Below, one piece after another: positions 29,316 to 63,589 of a stretch of 64,000 bases of DNA; the first letter of the stretch is position 1, and each line of letters starts with the position of its first letter. Source of the stretch: an uncultured Anaerolineaceae bacterium (GTDB lineage Bacteria > Chloroflexota > Dehalococcoidia > Tepidiformales > Tepidiformaceae); the NCBI GenBank assembly GCA_964508715.1, contig CAZDUX010000011.1, positions 1 to 64,000 on the forward strand, read 5' to 3'. The notes beneath the pieces were generated by a model. That model worked only from the letters and a program-made list of their open reading frames with translations. It was not told the origin of the DNA and made no database searches. The position numbers and the translations under genes are program-made.

Positions 29316-29317
29316 CG

Positions 29318-30031: not shown

Positions 30032-30051
30032 GTCCCTCACGCACCATCGAA

Positions 30052-30082
30052 AACGGGCCTCCTAATAGGAGGCCCGTTTTTG
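30052..30082 (+). terminator. rho-independent terminator after rplA
   Basis: GGGCCTCCT-AATA-GGAGGCCC stem-loop followed by GTTTTTGTT. Confidence 0.85.
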
Positions 30083-30178
30083 TTGTGCGGCAAATGGCAC
30101 CAAGGGGCGAAGAGGCTGCATGCTACTGCAATGAGTGGCAGTTACCTACAATGGCAATGAAGAAGAGCCTGCTGCCAG

Positions 30179-30715
30179 GTGGTGGCAGAGTCCCGCCGTG
30201 CTACGTGGAGTGGAAGGTTGGCAACGTCGTTCCGGCGCCTGGAAGATAGCGAACTGGATGAGGCGCACGCGATCGTTGCTGCCGCGACCGAGTGGCTGAA
30301 CAACCGGGGAATCGTGCAGTGGACGCGCGTGATGCCGCGCGAGATGTACATGGAGCGCCAGGAGCGGGGCGAGAATTATGGGCTGTTCGAGCCCGGCCTC
30401 TCGGCGGTGATGACGCTCAAGGAGCAGGCACCCGAGTACTGGCGAGACCGGGAATACGAAAAACCGTTCCTCTGGCTCTCAACACTCGCCTCACGGCGTG
30501 ACGTGCCGGGCTCGGGCGGGCGCGCCCTCGAGGCGGCCGTGGACTTCACGGCACGTTCGGGGTTCGCCAGCCTCTACCTCGACTGCGTGGATCGGGACGA
30601 TGCGCTGCCATCGTTCTACCGGCGTGCCGGGTTCGAGCAGCTGGAGCGGCGCGAGGTCTGGCCAGGCTGGCCGATGTGCCTCTTCGTGAAGCGGTTTGAC
30701 GGAGAGCAGGCCTAA
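30179..30715 (+). CDS. GNAT family N-acetyltransferase
   Basis: 178 aa; acetyltransferase fold pattern (VPGSGGRALEAAVDFTARSGFASLYLDCV..FYRRAGF); start uncertain. Confidence 0.65.
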   Translation: MVAESRRATWSGRLATSFRRLEDSELDEAHAIVAAATEWLNNRGIVQWTRVMPREMYMERQERGENYGLFEPGLSAVMTLKEQAPEYWRDREYEKPFLWLSTLASRRDVPGSGGRALEAAVDFTARSGFASLYLDCVDRDDALPSFYRRAGFEQLERREVWPGWPMCLFVKRFDGEQA

Positions 30716-33456: not shown

Positions 33457-34404
33457 ATGAGCGTGGGCTTCTTGATACCCGGCCCCGCGAGGTGTAGAAG
33501 CGGGCGCATCATGAACGAGAAGCTGAACTCAGACCATCGCATCTTCGTCAGCTACATCGACAAGTCCCGCGAGTACTACCTCGCGCAGGGCTATGGGAAC
33601 CCTTACCGCTGGGCACACTTCGACGAGGTCCCCTTTGGCAGGTTGGCGAGGCCGCTGAGTGAATCGCGAATCGGCCTCGTGACAACGGCAAGCCTCCCCC
33701 AACCGGAACCCGCACCCGATTCATTCGCCATTGCTCCAGTGGTGTACGCGGCCCCGACGGACCCGGCCCCCACAAGCCTCTATACCGACCACCGGTTCTG
33801 GGATAAAGACGCCACGCACACACACGATATCGACTCGTTTGCGCCGATCAACCGGCTGCGCGAAGCCGAAGCGGCGGGCAAGATCGGCAGTCTGTCGCCG
33901 CGGTTCTATGGCATCCCCACCGTTTATAGCCAGCGCCAGACAATGGAATCGGACTGCCCCGCACTCCTCGGGCTTTGCCGCGAAGATGGGGTGGATGCGG
34001 CGATCCTCGTGGCTCTCTGACCAGTCTGTCACCAGACCGTGAGTCTGGCGGCAAGGCACCTCGAAGAAGCGGGTATTCCGACGGTGGTTGTTGGGTCGGC
34101 CCGCGACATCGTGGAGCAATGCGGAGTTGCCCGGTTCCTGTTCACCGACTTCCCGCTTGGCAATCCGTGCGGCGCCCCTTACGACCCGGCGATGCAGACA
34201 GCGATCGTGGGCATGGCGCTGGAATTGCTGGAGTCGGCACGCATGCCCCGCACCACGGTGCAGACACCGTTTCGCTGGCCAAACGATGACTGGCGGCAGG
34301 ACTTCATGCGCTTCGACCATCTCACGGCAGAGGAACTCCGGGAGATGGGTGAGGGCCGCCGCCGGCGCCAGGCCGAACAACACCCGGTACGCGCAAGCGG
34401 ATAG
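33457..34404 (+). CDS. GrdB/PrdB-family (glycine/betaine/sarcosine/D-proline reductase component B-like) selenoprotein; Sec encoded by in-frame TGA at 34018..34020
   Basis: ORFs 33457..34020 and 34039..34404 are in the same frame separated by TGA; joined translation gives ...DAAILVAL-U-PVCHQTVSLAARHLEEAGIPTVVV, matching the U-x-x-C-H...AGIPT active-site region of PrdB/GrdB; upstream region resembles GrdB (INRLREAEAAGKIGSL..FYGIPTVYS); start may be 33511 (MNEKL). Confidence 0.7.
34032..34048 (+). promoter_or_regulatory. candidate bacterial SECIS hairpin (CCAGAC-CGUGA-GUCUGG) starting 11 nt after the UGA
   Basis: 6-bp stem plus 5-nt loop located at +12..+28 from TGA, the spacing used by bacterial SelB-dependent SECIS elements. 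Confidence 0.4.
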
Positions 34405-39186: not shown

Positions 39187-42100
39187 CTACTCGGTACGAA
39201 GGGCTTGAGCTCCCGCCTGGGCGGAGACGGCGCGTGTTGCAGCAACGAGCCCGATGACCACGACCGCAAGCACCGCCGCAATCGCACCACCCACGATGAG
39301 CCACTCCGTCTGGAGGATGAAGCCGGGCTCAACCTTCGCACCCGTTTCGGTGACGTCGAGGAAGGAGAGCATCTGGCGGCCAACGATCACGCCGAGGATT
39401 GCACCAGCGAGTGTGCCCGCGATGGAGACGACGGCGTATTCGAGCGCAAGCATGCGGAAGACCTGGGTGCGTGAGACACCCATCGCGCGCACGACGGCAA
39501 ACTCGACGCGCCGGCGGTTGATGGAGGTGACGAGCGAGACGAGCAACCCCGCGGCGACGAGGGCAAGCACAGCCGCGAAGCTCACGAAGAGGATGCCGCT
39601 GCCCGCCGCGGCGATGAGCGGGTTTTTCAGGTTATCGTTGAGGTCCTCGCTACGGCTCACGAGATGTGGAAGGCCGTATGCCGTGTCATCGAACGCCTCG
39701 ATGATCTGCTTCGAGACGGCCGCCTCGTCGGCGCCGGGCGCGAGTGAAATGAACGCCTCGGTGGGCACGAGGTCGTTTGGATCGGAAAAGCCGGTTGTAT
39801 CGCCCCACGTGGTGAGCTGGTCGCGATTGAAGATGACCGCGGGCCCATCCTTCGTCGCGAGCGTGGGAAAGAGGTCGAACGACGCGACGACACGGATGGG
39901 GACGAGCGTTCCACGGCCAACGACAAGCGTCGTGGTGCCGCCGGGCCGGAGGCCGGTAGAAGCAAGGAACGTCCGGCTGGCGAGGACAGACAGCGGGACG
40001 ATCTGGGGAGTGGTGTACATGCCGCGTGTCTCGCCCGTGTTCCCGGCGCCGAAGGTGAACGTGGCAGCGGCCTTGCCGCCGTGCGGCGCATCGGTTGCAG
40101 CGGCGAGGGTGTCCGGCTTTTGCGCCCGCGAGGGGAACGGTGACCAGCGCATGCCCGTCTCGAAGTCCTCCACCACCACGGCCGATCCATCGGCGAGGGT
40201 TGCGCCGATATCGTCGACGAAGAGCGGCGGATAGTTCGCCAGCGGCCGGTTGGGCGGCAACGTGAAGATGATGGACACGAGGCTCACCGGCTCGGGCCGC
40301 GGTCCGCCAAGGTCGGAGGCAATAGGTGCCGTGCGCCGGGACCAGGCGCCGCCGGTATCAGCGGTGCCGAGTTGAACCGTAAACAGGCGGCCGCTACCGT
40401 CGCGCAGGTGAGCCCAGATACCAATCTCGGAGAGCGCCGAATCGCCCTTGAACCAGACGCTTAGCTGGTTGGTGCCCTGGGGAAGGATGGCGCCCGGGAT
40501 CGCGACGGGAGCAGAGAGGCGGGCGAGGAGGTCGCCGAGTGGCTCGAAGGCGAAGTCGCTACGCCAGTAGATGATGTTCGAGAGCGCCGCAGGGTCGGCG
40601 GCGAGGACCTGGAACGAGCGGCTGACGACCCCTGGAACCGCAACCCCCGCCGTCGTGCGGGTGATGGCCGTCGCGCCGCTCACACCGGGGATGGCTTTCA
40701 GCTTCTTCTCGGTCTCCGGTGGTTCGGGGAGGGTGCGCCCGCCGGGAGCGAGGAGGCGGAGGTCGGCGCCGGTATCGAAGCCGGAGCGGTCACGGTAGGA
40801 GGCATCGGTTGTCTTTGCGTAGCTCGCGGCGAAGCTGCCGACGGCGACGGCCATCATCACGAGGAGGGTGAGACGCGTGTACTGGGCGGAGTTCCGTACG
40901 ACCTGCACCAGGCCGAGGGAGACGCTCGCGCCGGCGGCGGCATCAACACCCTTCGCAATCATCCGGAGGAAGATGGGGTAGAAGCGGAGGACGAGGGCGG
41001 CGGCGGCAGCCATTACCAGCGCGGGCGAGGCGAGGAGTAGCGGGTCGCTGCTGAGGCCGGCGGTAGAGGACGGTTCGTAGACAGAGCCGCGTTGGCGAAG
41101 TTCGAAGAGGGCAACGCCGGCTGCTGCAGCAAGAGCAAGGTCGAGGTAGTAGCGATGGATGACCGACCGGCCGGGGCGCGATTCGGAGCGGCGGGTGCTC
41201 ACCACCCCTCTCCGCGCGACGACGACGGCGGGGATGACGAGCGCCGCGAGTGAGAGGCCAACACCGGCAGCCGCCGCGGCAAACGACATCGGTGGGATGA
41301 TGACGGGGATGAGGCTGCCACCGCTCACATCGCGAAAAACCGGCGTCAGGCCGAGGATGGCAGTAGAACCGGCGGCGAGGAAGGGTGCGAGGATGGCGGC
41401 CGGTAGACCGATGATGAGCCCCTGCCAGAGGTAGATGATGGCGACCTGCATGACGCTCGCGCCACGGCCCCGGAGGAGGGCGATATCGGCAGCCTGCTGC
41501 TCGACGACGATCGCCGACACGATACCGACGTAGAAGAGGGCGATACCGGTGATCTCGAGGAGGAGCACGGTCAGCGGGACCTCGGCGTAGTCTGCATTCG
41601 TGCCGTAGCGCTGGAGCGTATCGCGCAGGGGGCTGAACGCGGTGCCGTTCATCGGTTCGACATCCTTGCCGAGGGCTTCGATGTCACTCCGGGCGATGGT
41701 GAAGTTGTTGCGATTGAGCTTCTCGGGGTTGGCATCGACCCACCAGGAGACGGATGCGTGATAGCCCGGGAACGCGGCGCCGAAGTTGCCGGTCAGGGTG
41801 CGCTCATCGGTGAACGCAGGAAGGATGGGGCCGACGTCGGGGATGTCGAGGCGAAACGGCGAAAAGTAGAGTTCTGCCGGACGCCCCCAGAAGGGGTCCG
41901 CCGGGTCGGCCGGTTCGATGATGCCAACGATGACCGCAGGGATACTGAAGCTCGCATTTGCTGTGGGGTCGCAGGGGGGCGGCGGGGGCGGCGGTTCGCT
42001 GGTGGGAAGGATACGGACACAGGTGTCGAAGGACTCACGGAGTTCGAGGGGCTCGCCGACCTTGAACCGAGAGGCAGCGGCAGACTGCGTGCTGATCGCG

Positions 42101-42567
42101 AGCTGAATTGGATCGCCTTTGGCAGACGGCTGCGGAAGCTGCCCCTGGACAATACGGACGTGTGCGCTGTAGCCCGTGAGTGACTGCGGTCGTGCCTGGA
42201 AGAGGCCCGTCGTCGCCGTGTCGCCCGGGCGGGCAAGGCCGAAGCGGCCGAGCTGGATGTAGCGTGACTGGGCGGCGCGGAACCAGCCGATGCGTTCGTT
42301 GATACGCTGCTCAACCGCCTGGCGAACTGCCTGCCCGGCCTCGGTCTGGAGGGGCACATCGTTGAGGATGACCTGGGTCCCGGCCCCCTGGTGGAGTTCA
42401 CGCCGCACTTTGAAGGTGAGGCCAAGGTCGGCCATTGCGCGCGAATAGATGGGTGCACTGGCGAGGAGGGTGGCCGCCACGAAGACGCCCAGGGCGACGA
42501 CCGCGAGGAGCCCGCGGATCGCAAGGCTCCGGCGAAAGGCCAGGCGCATGGTGCTGAAAGCGCTCAT
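39187..42567 (-). CDS. giant ABC transporter permease, FtsX family (two FtsX modules, about 10 TM, two large extracytoplasmic domains)
   Basis: 1126 aa; FtsX-type C-terminal TM bundles in each half; paralogous to 42666..46043; weak or no SD at start. Confidence 0.8.
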   Translation of the reverse strand: MSAFSTMRLAFRRSLAIRGLLAVVALGVFVAATLLASAPIYSRAMADLGLTFKVRRELHQGAGTQVILNDVPLQTEAGQAVRQAVEQRINERIGWFRAAQSRYIQLGRFGLARPGDTATTGLFQARPQSLTGYSAHVRIVQGQLPQPSAKGDPIQLAISTQSAAASRFKVGEPLELRESFDTCVRILPTSEPPPPPPPCDPTANASFSIPAVIVGIIEPADPADPFWGRPAELYFSPFRLDIPDVGPILPAFTDERTLTGNFGAAFPGYHASVSWWVDANPEKLNRNNFTIARSDIEALGKDVEPMNGTAFSPLRDTLQRYGTNADYAEVPLTVLLLEITGIALFYVGIVSAIVVEQQAADIALLRGRGASVMQVAIIYLWQGLIIGLPAAILAPFLAAGSTAILGLTPVFRDVSGGSLIPVIIPPMSFAAAAAGVGLSLAALVIPAVVVARRGVVSTRRSESRPGRSVIHRYYLDLALAAAAGVALFELRQRGSVYEPSSTAGLSSDPLLLASPALVMAAAAALVLRFYPIFLRMIAKGVDAAAGASVSLGLVQVVRNSAQYTRLTLLVMMAVAVGSFAASYAKTTDASYRDRSGFDTGADLRLLAPGGRTLPEPPETEKKLKAIPGVSGATAITRTTAGVAVPGVVSRSFQVLAADPAALSNIIYWRSDFAFEPLGDLLARLSAPVAIPGAILPQGTNQLSVWFKGDSALSEIGIWAHLRDGSGRLFTVQLGTADTGGAWSRRTAPIASDLGGPRPEPVSLVSIIFTLPPNRPLANYPPLFVDDIGATLADGSAVVVEDFETGMRWSPFPSRAQKPDTLAAATDAPHGGKAAATFTFGAGNTGETRGMYTTPQIVPLSVLASRTFLASTGLRPGGTTTLVVGRGTLVPIRVVASFDLFPTLATKDGPAVIFNRDQLTTWGDTTGFSDPNDLVPTEAFISLAPGADEAAVSKQIIEAFDDTAYGLPHLVSRSEDLNDNLKNPLIAAAGSGILFVSFAAVLALVAAGLLVSLVTSINRRRVEFAVVRAMGVSRTQVFRMLALEYAVVSIAGTLAGAILGVIVGRQMLSFLDVTETGAKVEPGFILQTEWLIVGGAIAAVLAVVVIGLVAATRAVSAQAGAQALRTE

Positions 42568-42665
42568 TCGGAGGCAATCTACAGCCCTGCACGGGAGGCG
42601 GCGAATGGGAAGGGCTTTCCGGGTTCACTGCCCGTCTGTAGGCTTTCGCCACGCGGAGGGGGCGC

Positions 42666-45600
42666 ATGGGCAGTTTCGGCGCCGTGATTCGGATGGTGGC
42701 GCGACGGAGCCTCGGGCACTGGAAGTTGCTCGTAGCCCTCGTCTCGGGGGTGGTCTTGTCGGCGGCGCTGATGTCGAGCGTCTTCCTCTATTCCGACGCA
42801 ATCCGGGATCTCGGGCTGCGCCACGCACTCGATAGCCGCACCCCGCAGGCACTCGATGTCCACGTGACTGTCTCGGGCGGCAAGGTCCAGCAAGAGGATT
42901 ACGAGGCGCGCCGGAAGACCGTCGACGCCCTCATGACGGGCTACGCCAGCGACATCATGACGGGGATCACCCACTCGGGGACGTCGAGCGGATTCTACCT
43001 CACCGCTCCTGGCGAGCCTGTTCCGAACACCGACGACCGGCCACGGTCGCTGTTCGCGTTCCAGGAAGGGCTGATGGACCACGCGAAACTGGTCGAAGGC
43101 GTGATGCCCCCCGAGCCTTCGCCGGGAGTCCCCGGTCAACCGCTTGAAGTCCAGGTGCTGATGGGGAAGGACGCTGCCAAGTCTCTCGGGGTGAAGGTGG
43201 GGCAGGCGTTCGACGTACACTGGCCGATCCGCGAAACGGCACCCATTCGAGTTGTCGTCGCCGGCCTGGTGCAGCCGAACGACATGGGTGAACCGTTCTG
43301 GGCGGGGCACGGCGACCGTTTCCGGCCGAATACGCCCAGTTGGCCGACGTACGCCTTCTTCATGGACGAAGCAGCGCTGGTGAAGAGCGCCGGCGGGTTC
43401 CTCCCGGATATGGACATCTCCGTCGAGACCCTCGGGGCCGTCGACGCGAAGCGGATCGTCAGCGGCAACTCCGATGCAGTGGAGGGGCGCCTCAACGCTC
43501 TCGACTTAGCGCTGAAGCAGCAGGTGCCATTTTCGCGCGTCGAGACGGAGATCCCGGCCGTGATAAAGAACTACCGGGAGAAGCTCTTCTTCACACGGCT
43601 GCCGCTCTTCGCCCTGATGATCCAGGTCGTCGGTATCGTGCTCTTCTACGTGGCGATGGTGGGGAGCATGGTCGTCGACCGGCAGACCGGCGAGATTGCG
43701 CTCTTGAAGAGCCGCGGGGCGAGTAACCGGCAGGTGCTGGGTGTGTTCGCCATCGAGGGGCTTGGCATCGGCATCCTCGCAACCGTTACCGGGCCCATTA
43801 TCGCCATCGCGGCGATCTCGGTGCTCGGGCTCACGCCACCGTTTCACGACCTCAGTGGTGGCGCGCTGCTCCACGTGCCGCTCTCGGGAGGGGCGATCGC
43901 GCTCGCGGGCCTCGGGGCGTTCCTCGCGTTTCTCGCGCTGATCTGGCCGGCGTACCGGGCTTGCCGCTACAGCATCACGCAGTACAAGCAGGAGATCTCG
44001 CGCCCGCCGGTTCAACCGGCGTTCTTCCGCTACCACCTCGACGTCGTCGTCGCGGCGGCTGGCGCGTTCGCCTTCTACCAGCTTCGCCAGAACGACTCAT
44101 TCGCGACGAAGGACCTGTTCGGGGACCTCTCGTTCGACCCCATCCGGCTGGCCACGCCGTCGCTTCTCATCCTGCTCGTGGCGATGGTCTTCTTGCGGCT
44201 GTTTCCACTCGTTCTCGGGGTCGTCTCGTGGGCATCGAAGCCGCTTCCGGGCCCAACCGTTTCGTTCGGGCTCCTGCGAATGGTCCGCAGCCCCGTGCAG
44301 CACAGCCGGCTTATCCTGTTACTGATCCTGACGACGGCCGTGGGGGTTTTTGCAGCGGGATTCCGGGCGACGCTGGAGCAGGGCTACCGGGACCGCGCGG
44401 ACTACCGGGCCGGCGCTGCCGTGCGCATCCAGGATATCCGGCTGCCAGGTCCGACACCGGTCGGACCGTTCAACGACCTCATCGCGAAGGTCACCGGGTC
44501 GCGCGATTTCACGGCCGCAGCGCGCCAGAACGCGTTCGCAAGCCTCGACCGCTTCCAGTCGGAGAGCCTGAACGTTCTTGGCGTAGAGCCGGATGCGTTC
44601 GCCCGGATCGCGGACTGGCGGGGCGACTTCGCCGGGGATTCGCTCGCCGGCCTGCTTTCGCGGTTACCGCGCAAGCCGCAGGAACTCGCCCAGACACCGG
44701 CGATTCCCGGCAACGCGAAGTTCATCGGCGTCTGGGCGAACCTGCCGATCGGGCCGAACGCAGCGAGCCTCGGCATCCGGCTGCGCAACGCGGACGGAAT
44801 TACGTGGGACTACCGGTTGACGCCGGCGGGCACGGCAGTGGCGAACGCGTGGACCTTCTACTACGCCGATCTTTCGAAACCCGTGACGAGCCGCCCGGCC
44901 GAACTCGCGCTGAGTGAACGGCGTATCGACACGATATTCGTCCGCCTCACCTCGCAGCAGCCGCTCATCCCGGAGACCGACACGGCGCTCTTTGACGATC
45001 TCCAGACGACGACGGAAGCGGCAGCCAGCCCTGCGTGGAACGGGAAAGGATTCGTATCGCCGACGGTGGCCGATTCGTTCGACGATATGACCGCGTATGA
45101 ACTGGTGACCGGCGTTTCAACCCTGGGGAACCCGGGCCAGATCACGAGGGGGACAGCGACGAACGGCCGGACAGGAACCGTCGCGAGGCTGACCTTCACA
45201 CGGGGGCCCGGGAGCACGAATGTCGTGGGCTTCCGGCGCCAGACCGACCAGCGCCCTGTACCCGTGGTGGTGGACCAGCAGTTCCTCGACGTCGCAAAGA
45301 AAAAGGTTGGCGACGAGCAACTCGTGTTCGTGAACAACCAGTACGTGAATATGACGATCGTTGGCGCCTACGACCTCTTCCCGACGTATGACCCGCAGGG
45401 CAAGCAGCACCTCTTCATTGCCGACCTGGCGGCACTCCAGGCGAGCGCGAGCCGCACGCCAACCGGCGATACGATCTTCCCGAACGAGGCGTGGCTCAAC
45501 GACAATCCGGGGGGGCTGACGAAGCAGAGCCTGCTCGACAAGGGTGTGAATGCGCAGGAGGTGGCCGACCGCGACGCGATCTTCGCAGCCCAATCGGCCG

Positions 45601-46043
45601 ACCCGCTGGTCGCGGCAAGCTGGCAGGGCATCCTGTTCCTGTGCTTCGCGGCCGTGTTGTTGCTCAGCGGGCTCGGGTTCATCACGCATTCGGGGTTGAG
45701 TGCGCAGGCACGGTCGATGGAGTTCGCCATTCTCCGGACGATGGGGATGTCGGGGCGGCAGATTGTCGGGGTGGTGTCGTTCGAGCAGGTATTCGTGATT
45801 GTCGCCGGGCTTGCGGCGGGGACGATCCTGGGGTTCCCGCTCAGCCGGTTGATGATCGACTCGATGGGCATCACGGAGAGCGGGGTGGCTCCGGTGCCGC
45901 CACTCGTCTCACGGATCGGCTGGGACGCAGTGGTCACGGTCTATTCGCTGCTTGGCATGCTCGTTGGTGCGACGATTGTGGCGCTTTTCCTGCTCTATTC
46001 GCGGATAGGCGTAAGCAAGACACTGAGGATGGGCGAGCTGTGA
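42666..46043 (+). CDS. giant ABC transporter permease, FtsX family (paralog of 39187..42567)
   Basis: 1125 aa; strong SD GGAGGGGG; similar N-terminus (M..RRSL...LL..L...V.....L.S...YS.A..DLGL); followed by two ATPase genes. Confidence 0.82.
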   Translation: MGSFGAVIRMVARRSLGHWKLLVALVSGVVLSAALMSSVFLYSDAIRDLGLRHALDSRTPQALDVHVTVSGGKVQQEDYEARRKTVDALMTGYASDIMTGITHSGTSSGFYLTAPGEPVPNTDDRPRSLFAFQEGLMDHAKLVEGVMPPEPSPGVPGQPLEVQVLMGKDAAKSLGVKVGQAFDVHWPIRETAPIRVVVAGLVQPNDMGEPFWAGHGDRFRPNTPSWPTYAFFMDEAALVKSAGGFLPDMDISVETLGAVDAKRIVSGNSDAVEGRLNALDLALKQQVPFSRVETEIPAVIKNYREKLFFTRLPLFALMIQVVGIVLFYVAMVGSMVVDRQTGEIALLKSRGASNRQVLGVFAIEGLGIGILATVTGPIIAIAAISVLGLTPPFHDLSGGALLHVPLSGGAIALAGLGAFLAFLALIWPAYRACRYSITQYKQEISRPPVQPAFFRYHLDVVVAAAGAFAFYQLRQNDSFATKDLFGDLSFDPIRLATPSLLILLVAMVFLRLFPLVLGVVSWASKPLPGPTVSFGLLRMVRSPVQHSRLILLLILTTAVGVFAAGFRATLEQGYRDRADYRAGAAVRIQDIRLPGPTPVGPFNDLIAKVTGSRDFTAAARQNAFASLDRFQSESLNVLGVEPDAFARIADWRGDFAGDSLAGLLSRLPRKPQELAQTPAIPGNAKFIGVWANLPIGPNAASLGIRLRNADGITWDYRLTPAGTAVANAWTFYYADLSKPVTSRPAELALSERRIDTIFVRLTSQQPLIPETDTALFDDLQTTTEAAASPAWNGKGFVSPTVADSFDDMTAYELVTGVSTLGNPGQITRGTATNGRTGTVARLTFTRGPGSTNVVGFRRQTDQRPVPVVVDQQFLDVAKKKVGDEQLVFVNNQYVNMTIVGAYDLFPTYDPQGKQHLFIADLAALQASASRTPTGDTIFPNEAWLNDNPGGLTKQSLLDKGVNAQEVADRDAIFAAQSADPLVAASWQGILFLCFAAVLLLSGLGFITHSGLSAQARSMEFAILRTMGMSGRQIVGVVSFEQVFVIVAGLAAGTILGFPLSRLMIDSMGITESGVAPVPPLVSRIGWDAVVTVYSLLGMLVGATIVALFLLYSRIGVSKTLRMGEL

Positions 46044-46047
46044 TAGG

Positions 46048-47001
46048 ATGCGGCACCATCACTTGCCGATCCCCGCTTGGAGCGCCTGTGCGCGCTGGAG
46101 CAGCGCTGTGACCCCGGAATCCGAAGTACCGCACATCCAGTGCGAGGACCTCTTCAAGATCTACAAGATCGCCAACCTCGAAGTCGTTGCCCTGCGCGGG
46201 CTCGACCTGAAGGTGCCGCATGGCGAAATCATGGGGATCGTCGGCTCATCGGGATCGGGGAAGAGCACCCTGCTCAACATCCTGGCGGGCCTCGACAAGC
46301 CATCGGCCGGGCGGGCGTTCGTGAACGGGAATGACCTCGTGACGCTCTCCGAGGCAGAGATGGTGGACTACCGGCGCAAGCAGGTCGGCTTTGTGTGGCA
46401 GCAGACGGGCCGGAATCTCATTCCGTATCTCGACGCACTCCAGAACGTGGAGGTGCCGCTCATCCTCGGCGGGGCATCGAAGAAGATGGCCCGTGAACGG
46501 GCGCGCGAGCTGCTCGATGCCGTGGGGCTGAGCGACCGGCTCAACCACCTGCCGAACGAACTCTCGGGTGGGCAGCAGCAGCGGGTCTCGATTGCCGTAG
46601 CGCTCGCGAACAACCCGCCCCTCCTGCTCGCGGACGAGCCCACCGGCGAACTCGACTCGATCGGGGCGACGATGATCTTCGCGCTCTTCGACGATCTCAA
46701 TCGCCGCTACGGGATAACCATCGTCATCGTGACCCACGACCCGGACATCGCCGAGCGCGTGGACCGCGTGGTCGCGATTCGCGACGGGCGCACGAGCACA
46801 GAGACCATTCGCACGCTCGGCCCGGATCCCAACCGGCTGGAGATGACGCACGATGAGTACGTGCTCATCGACTCGGCGGGGCGCCTCCAGATCCCCCGGG
46901 CCTACCTGGACGGGTTGAAGATCACCGAACGGGCCAGGGTGCTTCTTGGCGAGGGGCGGGTTGAGGTGCTGCCCGACCGTGATGAAAGGAGCCGGCGCTG
47001 A
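46048..47001 (+). CDS. ABC transporter ATP-binding protein (MacB/LolD-like) with C-terminal extension
   Basis: Walker A GSSGSGKSTL, signature LSGGQQQRVSIAVAL, Walker B LLLADEPTGELD; possible alternative GTG start at 46108. Confidence 0.88.
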   Translation: MRHHHLPIPAWSACARWSSAVTPESEVPHIQCEDLFKIYKIANLEVVALRGLDLKVPHGEIMGIVGSSGSGKSTLLNILAGLDKPSAGRAFVNGNDLVTLSEAEMVDYRRKQVGFVWQQTGRNLIPYLDALQNVEVPLILGGASKKMARERARELLDAVGLSDRLNHLPNELSGGQQQRVSIAVALANNPPLLLADEPTGELDSIGATMIFALFDDLNRRYGITIVIVTHDPDIAERVDRVVAIRDGRTSTETIRTLGPDPNRLEMTHDEYVLIDSAGRLQIPRAYLDGLKITERARVLLGEGRVEVLPDRDERSRR

Positions 47002-47024
47002 GCGGGGCATCGGTCAGAGCCGAG

Positions 47025-47825
47025 ATGGTGTCGCGGCGTTTCGAACGCGGTGCTGACGAGGTCTGGGCCCTCCGTGACGTTTCGATCTCGGTGAACGCGG
47101 GAGAGGTGATGGCACTCGTGGGGCGCTCGGGGTCGGGGAAGACGACGCTGCTCAATATCCTCGCCGGGCTCGACAAGCCAACGGCCGGGGAGGTGTTCAT
47201 CGATGGCGAACGCATCGACACGATGTCGGAACGCCAGATGACCGAGTTGCGGCGTCGAAAGCTGGGCTTTGTGTTCCAGTCGTTCGGCCTGTTGCCGCTG
47301 CTTTCGGCCCAGGAGAATGTGGAGCTACCAGCGCGGATCGCGGGGTTTGGGCACGGGGAACGTGTCCAGCGAGCGAAGCGTGCGCTCGAGCTCGTCGGGC
47401 TGACGAAGCGGGCACAGCACCGGCCGTACGAGCTTTCGGGTGGTGAGCAGCAACGCGTCGCGATCGCACGTGCGCTCACGTGTGAGCCAGCGCTCATCCT
47501 CGCCGATGAGCCAACCGGGGAACTCGATTCACTGACGGCAAAGGCGGTTTTTGCACTCCTGCGCGACCTGGCTCGCAGCGAGGGGATCACGGTTATCACC
47601 TGCACCCATGACCGCCAGGTGATGGAGATGGCCGACCGCGTGGAGGAGCTCGCCGATGGCCGCATCGTCAAGGGCCACGAGCGCGAAGTCTGGGAGTATG
47701 TGCAGGCGAAGGAGCACCATGTTCCCGAACCGGCCGGGGCGTCGCATCACTGGCCAAAGGGAGAATCAACCCCCGAAGACGAGTCTCCTCCGGCCGAACG
47801 GGCCCAACGGCCATGGGACTGGTGA
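47025..47825 (+). CDS. ABC transporter ATP-binding protein (MacB/LolD-like), second ATPase
   Basis: Walker A GRSGSGKTTL, signature LSGGEQQRVAIARAL, Walker B LILADEPTGELD; C-terminal acidic tail. Confidence 0.88.
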   Translation: MVSRRFERGADEVWALRDVSISVNAGEVMALVGRSGSGKTTLLNILAGLDKPTAGEVFIDGERIDTMSERQMTELRRRKLGFVFQSFGLLPLLSAQENVELPARIAGFGHGERVQRAKRALELVGLTKRAQHRPYELSGGEQQRVAIARALTCEPALILADEPTGELDSLTAKAVFALLRDLARSEGITVITCTHDRQVMEMADRVEELADGRIVKGHEREVWEYVQAKEHHVPEPAGASHHWPKGESTPEDESPPAERAQRPWDW

Positions 47826-49687: not shown

Positions 49688-50173
49688 ATGGAAGCTGAAC
49701 CACCAACCCCGACCCATTATCTCCAGATCGGTGAGGCGGCTGAGCGCGCCCAGCTGACGCAGCGCACGCTTCGCTACTATGAGGAGAAGGGTCTGCTCTA
49801 TCCACCGACGCGGATGGAGGGCGGGTTCCGGCTCTATTCTGATGAGGATATGGAGCGGATCGAACGGATCCGGCAGCTCAAGGATCTCCTCGGGTTCTCG
49901 TTGGCCGAGATCAAGGAGATGCTGGAATCGGACGATGTGCGGCTCCAGGTGCGCGCGGAGTGGCGGCCGGACGCTGACACTGCCGAGAAGGCTGAACGAA
50001 TGGGCAAGGCGCGCGACGCCACCGCCCAGCAACTCGCACTCATCGATCAGAAGATGGCAAAGATGGCATCGATGCGAGAAACGCTGGCGGAGCGGCTCGA
50101 GAAGTACGACGGATGGCTCGCACGATACGCGGCGGAGCAGGCTGGCAAGGCCGCCTCGGGCGTCGGCAACTAA
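49688..50173 (+). CDS. MerR family transcriptional regulator (no Cys; coiled-coil C-terminus)
   Basis: [30 protein letters not shown]; TTGACG -35 at 49645 and TACAAT box at 49673 directly before start. Confidence 0.8.
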
Positions 50174-50235
50174 CTGCTGGCGCAAGTGATATTGCTCATA
50201 GCACACACCCTGCCGGAATCCGCTACGATCGGTGC

Positions 50236-51243
50236 ATGTCTCTGACTGATGCGTTTGGCCGGCCCCTCCGCGATCTCCGGATTTCGGTGACCGACCGCTG
50301 CAACTTCCGCTGTACGTACTGCATGCCGAAGGAGATTTTCGGCCCCGACCACCAGTTTCTCCAGCGCGACGAGCTCCTGAGCTACGAGGAGATTACGCGC
50401 CTGGCGAGGATTTTCGTTGGTCTTGGTGTCGAAAAGATCCGCCTTACCGGGGGCGAACCGCTCGTGCGGCGCGACCTTCACGAGCTCATCGGGCGGCTGT
50501 CGGTGCTCGATGGCCTGAGGGACATCACGCTCACGACGAACGGTTCGCTGCTCAAGAACCAGGCGAAAGCGCTGAAGGAAGCGGGGCTCAAGCGGATCAC
50601 GGTCAGCCTGGATTCGCTCGATGACGCGGTATTCCAGTCGATGAACGACGTTGGTGTGCCCGTGGCGACCATCCTGGGCGGTATCGATGCGGCGGCAGCG
50701 GCGGGGCTCTTCCCGGTCAAGGTCAACGCGGTCGTGAAGCGGGGCGTGAACGACCACACGATTGTCGACCTCGCCCGCCACTTCAAGGGAACGGGCCACA
50801 TCGTGCGCTACATCGAGTTCATGGATGTGGGCGCGACCAACGGCTGGCGGCTCGACCACGTGGTGCCCGCGGCCGAGATCATCGGCAAGGTCAACGCGGA
50901 GATGCCGGTAGAACCGGTGCATGCCAATTACCGGGGTGAAGTAGCCAAGCGCTGGCGCTACCTCGATGGGACTGGCGAGATCGGCGTCATCGCCTCGATC
51001 ACCCAGCCGTTCTGCGGGGATTGCTCGCGCATCCGGCTTTCCCCCGAGGGCGAGCTCTACACCTGTCTTTTTGGCACGCGGGGCTTCGACCTTCGAGCGC
51101 TCATCCGCTCGGGGGCGAGCGACGACGAACTCGCCGAGGCGATCGGCCGGGTCTGGCGGCCGCGCACGGACCGTTATTCGGAGATCCGCTCGGAGGACAC
51201 CGTGGGCCTGCGCAAGGTAGAGATGTCGCACATCGGCGGATAG
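50236..51243 (+). CDS. moaA: GTP 3',8-cyclase MoaA (molybdenum cofactor biosynthesis, radical SAM)
   Basis: [10 protein letters not shown] radical-SAM cluster motif, C-terminal CGDCSRIRL second cluster; start refined to MSLTDAF. Confidence 0.92.
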
Positions 51244-58746: not shown

Positions 58747-58968
58747 ATGCCCGCCAAGGCCGATGCCATTGAAGTAGAAGGAACAGTAACCCAGGCGCTG
58801 CCCAACGCCGTCTTCCGGGTCGAGCTCGGAAACGGCCACCTCGTCCTCGCCCATATCAGCGGCAAGATGCGCAAGCACTATATCAAGGTACTCCCCGGCG
58901 ACCGCGTGCTCGTCGAGCTTTCGCCTTACGACCTCACCCGCGGACGGCTCACCTACCGCTTCAAGTAG
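58747..58968 (+). CDS. infA: translation initiation factor IF-1
   Basis: [73 protein letters not shown]. Confidence 0.92.
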
Positions 58969-59189
58969 CAAACCAGCAGGGCGCGGGCTTCACTGCTCCC
59001 GGCCACGCGATAGCGTTTCTCCGTCCGCCAGGCCGCCTCGCGTCGCGTCGCGCTCAACGGCCCAACTGGCGATGGGATAGCGGGTCGCATCTCTCCCATT
59101 TCTGCGGATCCCCGGGGCCCGAGCTCTCTCTTCAGCCTTGCCAGCTACTGGCCGATGCTCCTACCATAGCGAAACACCCGCGAACGTGG

Positions 59190-59306
59190 CCGCGCTTATC
59201 AAGAGTGGGCAGAGGGATCCGGCCCTGCGAAGCCCCGGCAACCTGCCACCATCGGGCAAGGTGCCAACTCCGGTCTCCCGTCGCGGCGGGAGGAAGATGA
59301 GAGCGA
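59190..59306 (+). promoter_or_regulatory. SAM-I (S-box) riboswitch
   Basis: CUUAUCAAGAGUGGGCAGAGGGAUCCGGCCCUGCGAAGCCCCGGCAACC...GGUGCCAACUCC...GGAAGAUGAGAGCG aligns nearly base-for-base with the B. subtilis yitJ S-box core; P1 halves CUUAUC/GAUGAG. Confidence 0.88.
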
Positions 59307-59494
59307 CTCCGCTCCCCACCATTACGGCCCACGCGGAAACGAGGAGTACCAGGATGCCGTCCTCATTGGGCCGTATGGTCATGCGCTAGCCCCTCGCCGA
59401 AGGGGCTTCCCGCTATCCACCCCCGATCCGCACCGATTTTGCGCGTGCCCTGCCGCACCCGCCATCCCGTGCCCATCGAACGCGGAGCATGACC

Positions 59495-60748
59495 ATGTCC
59501 TATGCAACTGCCCTTCGCTGTCGCGAATGTCATCGCGAATACCCACTCGCCGCACAGCATGTCTGCGAGTTCTGTTTCGGCCCCGTCGAAGTCACCTACG
59601 ACTACGACGCTATCCGCCAGGGAGTCACGCGCGAGCGTATCCAGGCCGGCCCGGCCAGCCTCTGGCGGTACCGCGATTTTCTCCCGGTCGACCCCGACGC
59701 CGCCATCGACATCGGCGCCGGCTTCACCCCGCTCGTTCGTGCGCGAAACCTCGGCAAGGCGCTCGGCCTGAACAACCTCTACATCAAGAACGACACGGTG
59801 AACCCAACCTGGTCGTTCAAGGACCGTGTGGTTGCGGTGGCCGCGAGCCGCGCCCGCGAGCTTGGATTCGAGAAACTGGCCTGCGCGAGCACGGGCAACC
59901 TGGCCAACAGCGTCAGCGCCCACGCCGCCGCCGCCGGGATGGAGGCCGTTGTCTTCATCCCCCACGACCTCGAGGCCGGCAAGGTCGTCGGTTCGGCCAT
60001 CTACAATCCGACACTCGTCAAGGTTCGCGGCAACTACGACGCGGTGAACCGGCTCTGCGCGGAGCTCTCTTCCACCTATCCCTGGGCGTTCGTGAACGTG
60101 AACGTGCGGCCCTACTACAGCGAAGGCTCGAAGACGCTCGGGTTCGAGGTCGCCGAGCAGCTTGGCTGGCGGGCGCCGGACCACTGTGTCGTCCCAATCG
60201 CCAGCGGTTCGCTCTTCGTGAAGATCAAGAAGGGGTTCGAAGAGCTGGCGAAGGCGGGCCTCATCGAGCCAACGAAGACGCGCATGAGCGGCGCGCAGGC
60301 CACCGGCTGTTCGCCGGTTGCTACCGCGTGGGAGGAGGGTTCGATGAACTTCCGGCCCCAGCGCCCCGACACCATCGCCAAGTCGCTCGCCATTGGCAAC
60401 CCGGCCGACGGCTACTACTCGCTCGTCCAGCTGCGCGATACGGGCGGCGCCTGCGGCAACGTGAGCGACCCCGAGATCGTGGCCGGGATGAAGCTCCTTG
60501 CCGAGACCGAGGGCATCTTCGCCGAAACTGCCGGCGGCGTGACCGTTGCCTCGCTCAAACAGCTTGCCGAACAGGGTAGAATTGGGCCCGACGAGGTGAC
60601 GGTGGCGTTCATCACCGGGGCCGGCTTCAAGACCATCGAGGCCGTCACCGGGGCGCTCGAGCCCCCGCTCGAGATCGACGCCACCGTCAGCAGCTTCGAG
60701 CACGCCTTCGAGGCGCGCGGCGCGGCTGCACTCGTGGGTGCGAACTAA
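59495..60748 (+). CDS. threonine synthase homologue (PLP fold-type II) with N-terminal C4 zinc ribbon; candidate MetM-like homocysteine synthase
   Basis: CRECH...CEFC zinc ribbon; NPTWSFKDR PLP-Lys motif, CASTGN, IGNPA, TGAGFK as in ThrC; start chosen at second ATG, 7 nt after GGAG. Confidence 0.85.
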   Translation: MSYATALRCRECHREYPLAAQHVCEFCFGPVEVTYDYDAIRQGVTRERIQAGPASLWRYRDFLPVDPDAAIDIGAGFTPLVRARNLGKALGLNNLYIKNDTVNPTWSFKDRVVAVAASRARELGFEKLACASTGNLANSVSAHAAAAGMEAVVFIPHDLEAGKVVGSAIYNPTLVKVRGNYDAVNRLCAELSSTYPWAFVNVNVRPYYSEGSKTLGFEVAEQLGWRAPDHCVVPIASGSLFVKIKKGFEELAKAGLIEPTKTRMSGAQATGCSPVATAWEEGSMNFRPQRPDTIAKSLAIGNPADGYYSLVQLRDTGGACGNVSDPEIVAGMKLLAETEGIFAETAGGVTVASLKQLAEQGRIGPDEVTVAFITGAGFKTIEAVTGALEPPLEIDATVSSFEHAFEARGAAALVGAN

Positions 60749-61014
60749 TGCCCGAACGGAGTGGCCCATCCATGGCGACCAATCGCGTCCGCTTCACCTT
60801 TCCCGAAGAGCAGATCAAGGAACCGGTGATCTACCGCATCGGCCATGAATTCAACGTCATCACGAACGTCCGCATGGCCGACGTCGATGAGCAGACCGGC
60901 TGGGTGCTGCTCGAAATCGAAGGCGAACCCGCCGAAATCCAGCGCGCCATCGCCTGGGCGCAGGAACATGGCGTTCGCGTCGACCCCGTGGCCGGCGACA
61001 TGGTCGAGGGTTAG
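60748..61014 (+). CDS. stand-alone NIL-domain protein (MetN C-terminal-like ferredoxin-fold domain)
   Basis: TAATG coupling to upstream gene; AIAWAQEHGVRVDPV resembles MetN C2/NIL domain (AIAWLQEH.V.VE). Confidence 0.6.
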   Translation: MPERSGPSMATNRVRFTFPEEQIKEPVIYRIGHEFNVITNVRMADVDEQTGWVLLEIEGEPAEIQRAIAWAQEHGVRVDPVAGDMVEG

Positions 61015-61068
61015 ACCCATCCCCTGCTGAGTGCCGTCCCTGGCGACTCGCAACCAGCAACCCGCATC

Positions 61069-61368
61069 TTGCAACTCCGGAGGACTTCCGTGCCCGTTAC
61101 TGTCCGTATCCCGCAGCCCCTTCGCAACCTGACCGGCAACCAGCCGACCGTGCCCGCCGGTGGCGACACCCTCGCCGCCTGCATCACCGACCTCGAAGCG
61201 AAGTACCCCGGCTTCCGTGAGCGGATGATGGATGACGGCGGCCAGCTTCGCCGCTTTGTCAACGTTTATGTCAATGGCGACGATGTGCGCTTCATCGATG
61301 GCCTCGCCACGGCGCTCAAGGATGGCGACGAGGTCAGCATCGTGCCGGCGGTTGCGGGCGGAGCGTAG
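61069..61368 (+). CDS. MoaD/ThiS-family sulfur carrier-like protein (C-terminus ...AVAGGA)
   Basis: About 93-99 aa beta-grasp pattern (VNGDDV..DG..T.LKDGDEVSIVPAVAGG); probable GTG start at 61090 after GGAGGA RBS. Confidence 0.65.
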   Translation: MQLRRTSVPVTVRIPQPLRNLTGNQPTVPAGGDTLAACITDLEAKYPGFRERMMDDGGQLRRFVNVYVNGDDVRFIDGLATALKDGDEVSIVPAVAGGA

Positions 61369-61376
61369 GAGCCGCG

Positions 61377-62399
61377 CTACCGCCGCCGGTCGGGCCAGGC
61401 GAGGACGAGCCAGATCGCGAGCAGTCCGCCGGCAATCACGATGAGCGGCGAAACCGTATGGCCGCCTCCACGCTGAACGAGGACGCCCGAACCCGTCGAT
61501 GGTGCGAGCGGTGTCGCGTTCGCGCCGGGCGTGCGAGCACCTGCCGCCGTGCTCATGGGGGTTGGGCTCGGCGCCGGCGTGGGGGTCGCGGTTGGCTCGG
61601 CGGGCTTCGCGGGCACGACCGTGGGTGTCGGTGTCGAGACGATACTCGGCCGGCTCCCGGACGTGCCCGTAGACTGCGTCGCGGTTGGCCTGGGCCCCTC
61701 AGTCGCGGTCGGGGTGGGGGTTTCGAACTCCTGGTTCTCATCATCGAGGTCTGGCGGCACGATCTCGATGCGGTAGGTCGCGTTCTCCTTCGCCGGTTGC
61801 AGGACGACGACGAAGAGCGGGCAGACGAACGTGTCGCCCGGAGCGATGGTGTAGCGGAGCCCCGGGCCGGTGAGTGTCGCGGGCCCGCTGCAGAACTGGC
61901 CAACCTCCGCAGCGGTGCGCCCGCCTGCGACGATGTCGATATCGGAGCGCTGGCAGCCACTGACATTGCACGTGGCGGTCGCGTTCGCTTCGAGCGAGCC
62001 CAGGTCGACCCGGATCGGGTTCGAGCCGGTGTTGGAGACGCCGAGGAAGTAGACACACCCGGCGTAGGGATAGCCGTTGCCCACATTCAGCTCGACGGTG
62101 GCCGGCTGCATCGTCGCGGCACAGGTGACGAGCGGGGGCATCGGCGGCACGAGGTCCGGGCCGGCGTAGACGTACGTGTCGAGCGCATCGGTCGGGCCGG
62201 CCGCTGCAAACGAGACGATCTCGTAGCCGCCGCTCCCGCCCGGAGTGCCCACGACGAAGGGCGTGGTGTTAGCCCGGTTGTAGATGCTCCATGTCGCTTC
62301 GAGGGGGGCGGCCGAACCCGCCTGGAAGCCGACACCGCCGACGAGCGAGACAACGATCGCGATTGCGGCCGCGAGGGTCCAGCGCACTGATCGCGTCAT
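61377..62399 (-). CDS. secreted protein with SipW-cognate-like N-terminal signal, Pro/Thr-rich linker and C-terminal TM anchor plus RRR tail
   Basis: N-terminus MTRSVRWTLAAAIAIVVSLVGGVGFQA resembles the TasA/CalY-type signal (ALGLALVGGGT); C-terminus GGGHTVSPLIVIAGGLLAIWLVLAWPDRRR. Confidence 0.5.
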   Translation of the reverse strand: MTRSVRWTLAAAIAIVVSLVGGVGFQAGSAAPLEATWSIYNRANTTPFVVGTPGGSGGYEIVSFAAAGPTDALDTYVYAGPDLVPPMPPLVTCAATMQPATVELNVGNGYPYAGCVYFLGVSNTGSNPIRVDLGSLEANATATCNVSGCQRSDIDIVAGGRTAAEVGQFCSGPATLTGPGLRYTIAPGDTFVCPLFVVVLQPAKENATYRIEIVPPDLDDENQEFETPTPTATEGPRPTATQSTGTSGSRPSIVSTPTPTVVPAKPAEPTATPTPAPSPTPMSTAAGARTPGANATPLAPSTGSGVLVQRGGGHTVSPLIVIAGGLLAIWLVLAWPDRRR

Positions 62400-62527
62400 T
62401 GGCGTGCCCCGCCCTTCCCGGTCTGCCGCGGGAGCCCGGCGGGAGCTCTCCGCGGCAACCGGGATGCACACCTCCGCGGGTCGAGCGCGGATGTGGCGTG
62501 CGTCTCGAGTACGCCCTGCTCCGCCAT

Positions 62528-63589
62528 CTACCTGCCACCTCCGCCCGGGTTGGGAGTCGAAGGGAACTTGAGGATGCCGATGGATTCGCCCGGCTTATTG
62601 ACCACTTTGGGCGTTGGCATCGCCGTTGGCGTGCTGGTTGGCCGGGGTGTGGCCGTTGGCTCGGCATCGATGGACTTCGCGGCTTCCTCATCGTTCGATG
62701 GCGAGGCGTCGACGGTAACGATGGGGTTGCTGGTGCTGGCTGGCGGGCGGGCTCCCAGCGTCGTCCGCAGCGGCGCGGCACAGCTGGCGGGCTTTGGAAC
62801 AGCGACCGTGCCCGCGCCCAGCGGGCCGCTGCCGGAGACCTCCATGTATTTCGCGGTCACATTCTCGGTGGGGATGCCCGTGCCGGTGAGGGTGATGCTG
62901 AACTCGAGGGCGTTGAACGGGCCGTGGCCGGCGTTGGTGGCCTTCCACTTCACGAGCTTGCCCGCGGTATCGGGCGCGTAGGCCCAGGATGAGACGGGAT
63001 TCGTTCCCGGTGCGGGGTGCGTCTCGCTTTGCACCACGGCGTTGAGGGCGGGGTCGAAGCAGACGGGGAGCGCGATGTAATCGATGTTCTTTGCGCACGT
63101 TGGCCCGGCGATTCCCCCGCCCGAGAAGGTGTACGTGTAGGTCGTTTTCCCGCCTGCTTCGACCGGCGCCGACTTCAGGGCGATGACGTAGGGCTGGCAG
63201 GCGAACGAGCCGGTGCCGACGGAGCTCGAAAGCTGGAGCTCCTGGTACCAGAGGGTGTTCGCCGATTGCATGCGGACGAGCGCGAAGACGGAGAGCGCGA
63301 GCCCGAGGACGAGCGGCACCGCCGCGACCTGTGTCCGCCGTGCGAGCCGCCGGCCGGCCCCCGCGGGGATGCCGAAGCGCCCGGTGCGGTGGGTTCGCAG
63401 CCGCCGGGGCATGGGTGCCGGCGAGGGAGCGGTGGCAGCCGCCGGGGCAGCCGCATCGAGCGTATGGAGCGGAGCGCCGCCGTTCGTGGCATCGATCGTG
63501 AAGCCGGGGTCGGTTGTCCAGGTGGCATCGATGAGGAAGCCATCGGGCAGGGCCAGGTGCTGGAAGGGGTCGCGGAACGTGTCGTTCAT
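62528..63589 (-). CDS. secreted/anchored protein with SipW-cognate-like signal region (...RRTQVAAVPLVLGLALSVFALV...), Thr/Pro-rich C-terminus
   Basis: ATGA overlap with upstream signal peptidase gene; alternative internal start at 63412 (MPRRLRTHR) would give a classical signal peptide. Confidence 0.5.
   Translation of the reverse strand: MNDTFRDPFQHLALPDGFLIDATWTTDPGFTIDATNGGAPLHTLDAAAPAAATAPSPAPMPRRLRTHRTGRFGIPAGAGRRLARRTQVAAVPLVLGLALSVFALVRMQSANTLWYQELQLSSSVGTGSFACQPYVIALKSAPVEAGGKTTYTYTFSGGGIAGPTCAKNIDYIALPVCFDPALNAVVQSETHPAPGTNPVSSWAYAPDTAGKLVKWKATNAGHGPFNALEFSITLTGTGIPTENVTAKYMEVSGSGPLGAGTVAVPKPASCAAPLRTTLGARPPASTSNPIVTVDASPSNDEEAAKSIDAEPTATPRPTSTPTAMPTPKVVNKPGESIGILKFPSTPNPGGGGR

Follow-up and report, generated by a model that had tools for sequence, protein, structure and literature searches.

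A riboswitch-controlled Chloroflexota operon pairing a threonine-synthase-like enzyme with a stand-alone NIL protein and a CysO-like carrier points to a probable thiocarboxylate route to homocysteine

In the CysM/CysO system, the substrate of a pyridoxal phosphate (PLP) enzyme is a phosphorylated hydroxy-amino acid and the nucleophile is a protein thiocarboxylate, and the locus that we describe here would follow the same logic. The first description of the MetM/MetO route to homocysteine dates from 2024, and nearly all annotations still name its enzyme threonine synthase. In Streptomyces albulus the pathway comprises MetM, MetO, Mec and MoeZ, as laid out in Appendix 4 of the GapMind 2026 preprint, whose authors remark that annotations often mistake MetM for threonine synthase (10.1101/2024.10.14.618325); an S-adenosylmethionine (SAM) riboswitch lies 5′ of S. 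albulus metM, according to the portion of PMC12172450 that deals with this gene. We analyzed a stretch of 64,000 nucleotides (hereafter the window; contig CAZDUX010000011.1, positions 1 to 64,000, assembly GCA_964508715.1) from an uncultured Anaerolineaceae bacterium placed by GTDB in the Tepidiformaceae of the Chloroflexota. Near its 3′ end, a SAM riboswitch precedes genes for a PLP enzyme of the threonine synthase (ThrC) fold, a stand-alone NIL-domain protein and a ThiS/MoaD-type sulfur carrier. To judge from sequence and context, this is very probably a methionine-pathway operon that makes homocysteine by means of a MetM/MetO-type protein thiocarboxylate. For the locus as a whole, we lean towards a MetM/MetO route joined by a methionine-sensing NIL subunit as the best explanation. 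The pathway and its control by SAM have been in print since 2024, and the locus adds a Chloroflexota member to them.

The riboswitch is the sole Rfam match across the window: a full-length SAM-I (S-box) aptamer at 59193-59303 on the + strand (RF00162, model positions 1-108 of 108), scoring 79.9 bits against a gathering threshold of 44.4 (E = 3.4e-17). Downstream on the same strand lie, in this order, a leader, the enzyme gene (59489-60748), the NIL gene (60748-61014) and the carrier gene (61090-61368), all three co-oriented, and each open reading frame (ORF) has a Pfam match: PALP (1.9e-67), NIL PF09383 (1.2e-16; 60.8 bits against a cutoff of 24) and ThiS PF02597 (1.5e-19), respectively. The original prediction, made by a model from the letters of the stretch, had read this segment as a SAM riboswitch ahead of a three-gene operon encoding a threonine-synthase-fold PLP enzyme with an extra C4 zinc ribbon, an 88-aa stand-alone NIL protein coupled to it through TAATG, and a ThiS/MoaD-type beta-grasp protein, and the profile searches that it called for bear this out with one correction: the riboswitch does stand upstream of the trio but not directly before the first gene, from which a conserved leader separates it. 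The NIL domain and its coupling hold; its homologues are about 80 aa long, and a later start is possible.

To place the locus among its relatives, we used a NIL alignment to query a collection holding one genome for each GTDB species and obtained 131 species, all Tepidiformales-type Chloroflexota, from which the best 80 loci were analyzed; the scan patterns are very narrow peptides that sample this group only and are uninformative on absence elsewhere. The enzyme gene is directly 5′ and the ThiS-like carrier gene directly 3′ of the NIL gene, on the same strand, in 80 of 80 species, and the genes flanking the trio vary from genome to genome. A covariance model built from eight aptamers detects the riboswitch in 69 of the 80 loci, or 69 of the 73 in which the upstream DNA is long enough, and each of these lies on the + strand and 5′ of the enzyme gene. 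Seven of the 11 misses are cut by contig ends and four are genuine. These four (L063, L075, L077 and L080, all Tepidiformaceae) keep the trio and have full upstream sequence with no detectable SAM riboswitch; in L080, the frame 5′ of the enzyme gene is open for about 3 kb. Clustering the flanks of the 80 loci yielded no further conserved neighbor; the only clusters to emerge were artefacts of frames that overlap the enzyme gene, along with one downstream gene particular to a lineage.

The enzyme is 419 aa long when read from 59489, or 417 aa from ATG 59495, the start taken by gene callers. Its N-terminus carries a C4 zinc ribbon (C11-x2-C14...C26-x2-C29), a motif that is kept in relatives and absent from the solved ThrCs, and its SFKDR motif, which holds the catalytic lysine, and its ASTGN motif align with those of crystallized ThrCs. 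In a search of 1.8 billion cluster representatives, identity to the nearest full-length relatives is 44-60%, and those whose surroundings are visible (L004, L005, L091 and L093) sit with a SAM riboswitch, a ThiS-type gene or both. Identity reaches 53-60% for riboswitch- or carrier-linked homologues (P0241, P0242 and P0245), with which the enzyme also shares RP[YF]Y.EG.K, compared with 37% for the crystallized ThrC of T. thermophilus. Together with 79 of the 150 best representatives, it has RP[YFW]Y.EG.K at the position where crystallized ThrCs align with NP[YH]R[IL]EGQK, a sequence difference that may serve as a marker separating MetM-like enzymes from ThrC. The site falls at about residues 206-214 of the window enzyme, and the representatives compared are P0241-P0390. 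The Arg of the ThrC NPxR motif presumably contacts the substrate phosphate.

The third ORF (61069-61368) opens at TTG 61069, and its likely start is GTG 61090, which follows GGAGGA; the gene caller gives 92 aa. SAMP1 (65.9 bits against a cutoff of 60) and the MoaD family are the only NCBIfam names above cutoff. The best solved relative, matched over the full length, is Mycobacterium tuberculosis CysO (3dwg_C, E = 1.3e-29), followed by a ThiS/MoaD-family carrier (4n6e_B, 4e-21), with MoaD and SAMP entries far weaker (1e-13 to 1e-3). In these comparisons, the carrier groups with the CysO-type amino-acid sulfur carriers and not with the MoaD or ThiS of cofactor synthesis. Gly-Gly is kept in 80 of 80 carriers, 45 of which end exactly there, and the others add one or two residues (A, C, S, SS and the like; ...AVAGG-A in the window), which is the pattern expected of carriers trimmed by a JAMM hydrolase. 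A moaA gene lies elsewhere in the window (50113-51243), and the carrier was considered as its MoaD; this was rejected because the carrier gene adjoins the enzyme and NIL genes in all 80 loci with their different flanks, and moaA is unlinked to the trio in relatives.

In the route that we propose, the operon would be expressed when SAM is low and repressed when SAM binds. The extra C-terminal Ala of the 92-aa carrier would be trimmed and the exposed Gly-Gly terminus adenylated and thiocarboxylated by an E1-type enzyme, the trimming and E1 enzymes presumably being encoded outside the 64-kb window. The zinc-ribbon ThrC-fold enzyme would then eliminate phosphate from O-phosphohomoserine and add the carrier thiocarboxylate at C-gamma, after which homocysteine would be released. 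The same MetM/MetO logic had been put forward in the original prediction, and it gains indirect support from the CysO-like carrier, from an enzyme closer to linked homologues than to ThrC, and from the SAM riboswitch found 5′ of enzyme homologues in at least six unrelated contexts: the window, L001 (Tepidiforma), L004, L005, L093, L173 and the type B loci described below. Two outcomes that would have told against that logic, a cofactor-type carrier and orthologous loci lacking the NIL gene, were not what we saw: CysO is the best match, and the NIL gene is in 80 of 80 loci.

Between the enzyme and the carrier, the 88-aa NIL ORF (60748-61014) opens with an ATG overlapping the TAA stop codon of the enzyme gene (TAATG). 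Homologues are about 80 aa in 120 of the 120 matches listed, which points to a start at ATG 60772; in the window, eight extra codons lie between the overlapping ATG and this conserved one, and either could be used. The 80-aa start overlaps the upstream stop in 54 of 62 scored loci (TGATG or TAATG in 52, ATGA in two), so translational coupling of enzyme and NIL is real and conserved. The Tepidiformales proteins form a family of 80 aa with 82% mean column identity. The window protein has no cysteine, and the same holds for 118 of 120 proteins of the Tepidiformales type and for 120 of 120 of the Binatia type. Public records (P0001-P0120 and P0428-P0547, 80-95 aa) call such proteins 'FeS-binding protein', 'L-aspartate semialdehyde sulfurtransferase ferredoxin' or 'ABC-type methionine transport system ATPase subunit', names that appear to be over-transferred annotations; because there is no cysteine, the first two are wrong. 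A role as redox or persulfide carrier was ruled out on the same ground. Nor is the protein a member of the ferredoxins of L-ASST (L-aspartate semialdehyde sulfurtransferase), which join NIL to a 4Fe-4S domain: it has 80 aa, no cysteine and no ferredoxin domain.

By sequence, the top solved match of the NIL protein is the C2 domain of MetN (E = 2.5e-6). An AlphaFold2 model (predicted local distance difference test score, pLDDT, 80) has the topology beta-alpha-beta-beta-alpha-beta and superposes on MetN C2 (3tui, 3tuz and 3dhw) with template-modeling (TM) scores of 0.80-0.82, root-mean-square deviations of 1.2-1.5 Å and 31% identity, ACT domains coming further down the list. N32 and A36, which do not vary in 17 of 17 aligned proteins, correspond in the alignment to N295 and A299 of MetN. 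L-methionine bound to MetN spans the interface of the C2 dimer and forms a hydrogen bond with N295; binding is abolished in N295A, and A299 sits on the interface strand (PMC6233128). The last eight residues of the NIL protein fall outside the Pfam domain, and residues 76-80 are modeled with pLDDT below 50. This tail reads G-D-[VIL]-[VIL]-[ED]-G in 80 of 80 Tepidiformales-type loci (GDMVEG in the window) and PIEKN[VI]IE in 120 of 120 Binatia-type proteins; being invariant yet disordered in the model, it suggests a docking motif.

Sampling of other enzyme clades turned up NIL genes in L087, L088 and L089; in L087, whose enzyme is 60% identical to that of the window, and in L088, whose NIL gene runs off the contig, the order is enzyme, carrier, NIL. 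A second scan, of metagenomes, used a single divergent NIL query from L087 and returned 80 loci, which were sorted by local phmmer. Type A (about 11 loci) has this same order of enzyme, carrier and NIL, which is also that of L094-L104. Type B (about 68 loci, L105-L172), assigned to Candidatus Binatia by source annotation, places a CysM-like gene between carrier and NIL in the order SAM riboswitch, MoeB/ThiF E1, enzyme, carrier, CysM-like synthase, NIL, ThiF N-terminal fragment, radical-SAM variant and Na/sulfate symporter. Its riboswitch is followed by a classical U-tailed terminator, and its E1 gene is inside the operon, unlike in the window locus. L106 (1-7459) is an example of this type, with a ThiF fragment of 194 aa and a variant radical-SAM protein matching NF045502. 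The order in L173 (2413-8225) is riboswitch, enzyme, NIL, carrier, CysM-like gene, two carriers and a second CysM-like gene, which makes a run of three carrier genes and three PLP-enzyme genes. At 6960-7535 of L089, next to a gene for a MetM-like enzyme, lies one for a 191-aa protein built from two NIL domains in tandem, and its surroundings include no carrier gene. The position of the methionine-contacting Asn is taken by Ser in one domain and by Asp in the second, and the tail, RDVVEG, resembles that of the window protein.

Enzyme and carrier are present in every metagenome locus that has enough upstream DNA, NILs of different architectures are 26-45% identical to one another, and the enzyme is the single constant neighbor of NIL. 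By these comparisons of sequence and gene order, NIL is a recurrent accessory in at least three architectures beyond the window type and in several distant lineages. Enzyme loci without a NIL gene are found as well: L004, from a Micromonosporaceae metagenome-assembled genome (riboswitch and enzyme), L005 (riboswitch, enzyme and carrier) and L091, from a Thermoplasmatota archaeon (enzyme, carrier and homoserine dehydrogenase); in L093 (riboswitch, enzyme and carrier), none is seen before the contig end. A NIL protein is not among the MetM/MetO steps as they stand in the step list of the GapMind preprint (10.1101/2024.10.14.618325). As a conserved, multi-lineage accessory of MetM/MetO-type loci, NIL thus appears undescribed in the literature examined, which agrees with the earlier view of it as an undescribed extra.

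What the NIL protein does is a more tentative matter. At a confidence just short of even, we propose that it is a small methionine-sensing regulatory subunit of the MetM-like enzyme, a reading that draws on sequence, model and analogy and that coincides with the regulatory or ligand-sensing role guessed in the original prediction, given the likeness to MetN C2 and the retained Asn. The protein would dimerize, bind methionine or a close relative (homocysteine) and restrain the enzyme, and its flexible, lineage-invariant tail may do so by docking on the enzyme; the result would be fast end-product feedback at the protein level atop SAM control of expression. Two known pairs serve as working analogies, with no homology claimed. 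IlvN/IlvH is a small beta-alpha-beta-beta-alpha-beta subunit, encoded by a gene immediately 3′ of, and translationally coupled to, the catalytic gene of acetohydroxyacid synthase, that confers end-product feedback, and the C-terminal tail of CysE enters the active site of CysK, a fold-type II PLP enzyme. That the NIL tail might plug the MetM-like enzyme as the CysE tail does CysK is speculation.

In homocysteine-forming L-ASST, the NIL domain is treated as a methionine-binding regulatory module (PMC12068725). Several observations weigh against assigning such a role here. No natural enzyme-NIL fusion occurs among the long representatives, where the only fusions are of LeuA-dimer and PadR domains to more distant ThrC homologues, probably of archaeal type. 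The NIL tail varies between lineages (that of L087 ends TTLES). Asn32 belongs to the motif that defines the family, and its conservation therefore says little for methionine binding in particular. Finally, because NIL is absent from L004, L005, L091 and probably L093, it is optional and not essential for catalysis.

The main alternative, which we consider unlikely, is that NIL, instead of sensing, serves the sulfur relay as a structural adaptor or chaperone. Its task could be to keep the carrier bound to the PLP enzyme or the E1, or else to shield the thiocarboxylate or a carrier-homocysteine adduct, with its tail docked in a groove of the partner. Gene order favors this slightly, in that NIL lies between the CysM-like synthase and the ThiF-like fragment in Binatia-type loci, not beside the MetM-like gene, and follows the carrier in type A; its tail is invariant but disordered, as docking tails are, and L-ASST is a further case of a sulfur-transfer enzyme combined with a NIL module (PMC5764234). 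However, a protein without cysteine cannot itself carry sulfur, the enzyme and double NIL of L089 lack a neighboring carrier gene, the system occurs without NIL in several lineages, and the closest characterized relative is a ligand-binding regulatory domain whose methionine-contacting Asn is kept (PMC6233128).

The assignment to homocysteine synthesis must also be weighed against the reading that gene 1 is an ordinary or dual-function threonine synthase and that the two small genes serve something else, which we regard as very improbable. NCBIfam scores the enzyme as threonine synthase (PRK08197, 303 bits, exactly at the cutoff; the TIGR00260 cutoff is also reached), all source names say the same, and the window holds no other thrC. 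Further, a cyanobacterial MetM-like protein had threonine synthase activity, if weak, and deaminase activity in vitro, as reported in the part of PMC12172450 that concerns it. The NCBIfam score and this activity count against a MetM/MetO assignment, as do two other points: Pfam searches of the ~57 genes of the 64-kb window found no E1, JAMM/Mec, thrC, hom, thrB or met gene, and orthology to S. albulus MetM/MetO rests on a Micromonosporaceae proxy and on context. A threonine synthase under SAM-riboswitch control in many unrelated lineages, however, would starve the cell of threonine at high SAM, and this one is strictly linked to a CysO-like carrier gene; identity to crystallized ThrC is low, the motif aligned with NPxR differs, and the GapMind remark on misannotation applies to exactly this name. 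Slightly less probable still is that the trio makes another sulfur compound, either a thio-metabolite or, starting from O-phosphoserine, cysteine. In its favor, the nearest solved matches of the carrier are CysO, a protein of cysteine synthesis, and the 4n6e carrier, and the substrate specificity assigned to the enzyme is a prediction, but the ThrC fold acts on O-phosphohomoserine and is not that of CysM, the separate CysM-like genes of Binatia-type and L173 loci indicate two distinct products, SAM control and a MetN-like NIL both point to methionine, and L091 adds homoserine dehydrogenase.

A second layer of control may reside in the leader between riboswitch and enzyme. The spacing from aptamer to enzyme start is 155-203 nt in 20 loci (about 185 nt in the window), and an alignment of 14 leaders contains conserved blocks. 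Upstream, a sigma-70-like promoter candidate (TTGCCA-18-TACCAT, 59138-59167, + strand) lies 26 nt 5′ of the aptamer; it is a consensus match only, with one site found against 0.3 expected. For the 14 leaders, RNAalifold predicts a helix of six nearly invariant pairs (CGGCCC at 59326-59331 with GGGCCG at 59368-59373, + strand) that encloses the Shine-Dalgarno (SD) site and start codon of a mini-ORF; there is no covariation, so it is unproven as a helix. The mini-ORF, MPSSLGRMVMR (59341-59389 with its SD site, + strand), has an SD-like GAGGAG (59341-59346) 7 nt 5′ of ATG 59354 and runs to TAG 59389. An ATG-started ORF ending ...[LP]G[RH]MxMx-TAG is found in at least 63 of 71 related leaders and GTG starts in five more, the stop is always TAG, and in 62 of 65 leaders the spacing between the SD-proximal ATG and the GGGCCG anchor leaves the same remainder modulo 3.

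A GC-rich hairpin (AGCCCCU-CGCCGA-AGGGGCU, 59388-59407, + strand) starts inside the mini-ORF stop codon. It recurs in 68 of 68 distinct leaders with stems that differ between groups (GCCCUUCC/GGAAGGGC or GGUCCCC/GGGGACC), the TAG forming the hairpin base in most of them and lying in the loop in the L081 group, and the distant lineage L173 keeps ...AUGGUCAUGCGCUAG together with the hairpin. The sequence that follows is C-rich, not U-rich, so this is not a canonical terminator, and a terminator scan of 58900-61600 found no site in the leader. Folding of the whole leader by minimum free energy is no better than that of shuffles (z = -0.5); CAUGCUC in the leader is complementary to GAGCAUG at the enzyme start. 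The mini-ORF may encode a Met-codon leader peptide through which translation is coupled to the hairpin, and much of the leader conservation could equally reflect RNA structure; on sequence evidence, the chances that the mini-ORF is translated are about evenly balanced. If it is, the locus would combine riboswitch and leader-peptide control in an unusual way, and our literature search found no description of a riboswitch together with a Met-codon leader peptide.

A more far-reaching possibility, which we hold to be doubtful, is that stand-alone NILs form a new class of subunit that senses methionine and uses its tail to shut a thiocarboxylate-dependent PLP synthase, and that in Tepidiformales a composite leader, with a translated Met-codon peptide behind the SAM riboswitch and a regulatory hairpin abutting its stop codon, adds to this, so that SAM, Met-tRNA and methionine would be sensed together. 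The route would extend to Chloroflexota and, via related loci, to Binatia, a Thermoplasmatota archaeon and several unassigned lineages, and its spread bears on genome-based predictions of methionine prototrophy. The NIL gene offers a plausible and testable regulatory subunit for the route, and NIL links the MetN importer, methanogen L-ASST and MetM/MetO through one small domain; if the proposed role is true, NIL would be a general sensor module of the methionine family.

Other parts of the window hold genes of separate interest. Directly 3′ of the operon, on the - strand (61377-63589), are genes for two proteins of ~355-365 aa that have no Pfam match, are rich in Pro, Thr and Ala, contain hydrophobic segments and are probably secreted or located at the cell surface. 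At 39187-47825, two divergent genes encode proteins of ~1125 aa whose sole Pfam match is a C-terminal FtsX permease domain, and two ATP-binding cassette (ABC) ATPase genes come after them. Two tandem genes at 27164-28517 belong to the Uma2 family (putative restriction endonuclease-like), and among their neighbors the ORFs at 28715-30715 and 33457-34404 have no Pfam match.

Several known systems invite comparison with the locus. M. tuberculosis CysM/CysO/Mec/MoeZ (PDB 3dwg and 3dwm) supplies the best solved relative of the carrier, CysO, but the enzyme here has the ThrC fold and not that of CysM, and its expected substrate is O-phosphohomoserine and not O-phosphoserine; we know of no NIL protein in the CysM/CysO system. 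With MetN C2 (3dhw, 3tui, 3tuz and 3dhx), the NIL protein shares its fold, the Asn corresponding to N295 and the interface Ala corresponding to A299, and both would be regulatory in methionine homeostasis, that role being predicted on the NIL side; it differs in standing alone at 80 aa, in having a conserved eight-residue tail of its own that MetN lacks, and in that its partner would be a biosynthetic enzyme. The L-ASST NIL-ferredoxin (MA1822) of methanogens and Desulfovibrio is likewise a NIL module encoded with a homocysteine-forming sulfur-transfer enzyme, and there it is needed for that enzyme (PMC5764234, PMC12068725). JGI gives the L-ASST ferredoxin name to some of the present NIL proteins, which have no ferredoxin domain and no cysteine and whose partner is an unrelated PLP enzyme of the ThrC fold, as against COG1900. 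As far as the published descriptions of S. albulus MetM/MetO allow a comparison, that system has the same pairing of a ThrC-homologous PLP enzyme with a ThiS/MoaD carrier, the same SAM riboswitch 5′ of the enzyme gene, a carrier that also needs C-terminal maturation, and an E1 and a hydrolase encoded elsewhere; compared by description, the present locus differs in belonging to the Chloroflexota, in carrying a NIL gene between enzyme and carrier, and in its long leader with a mini-ORF.

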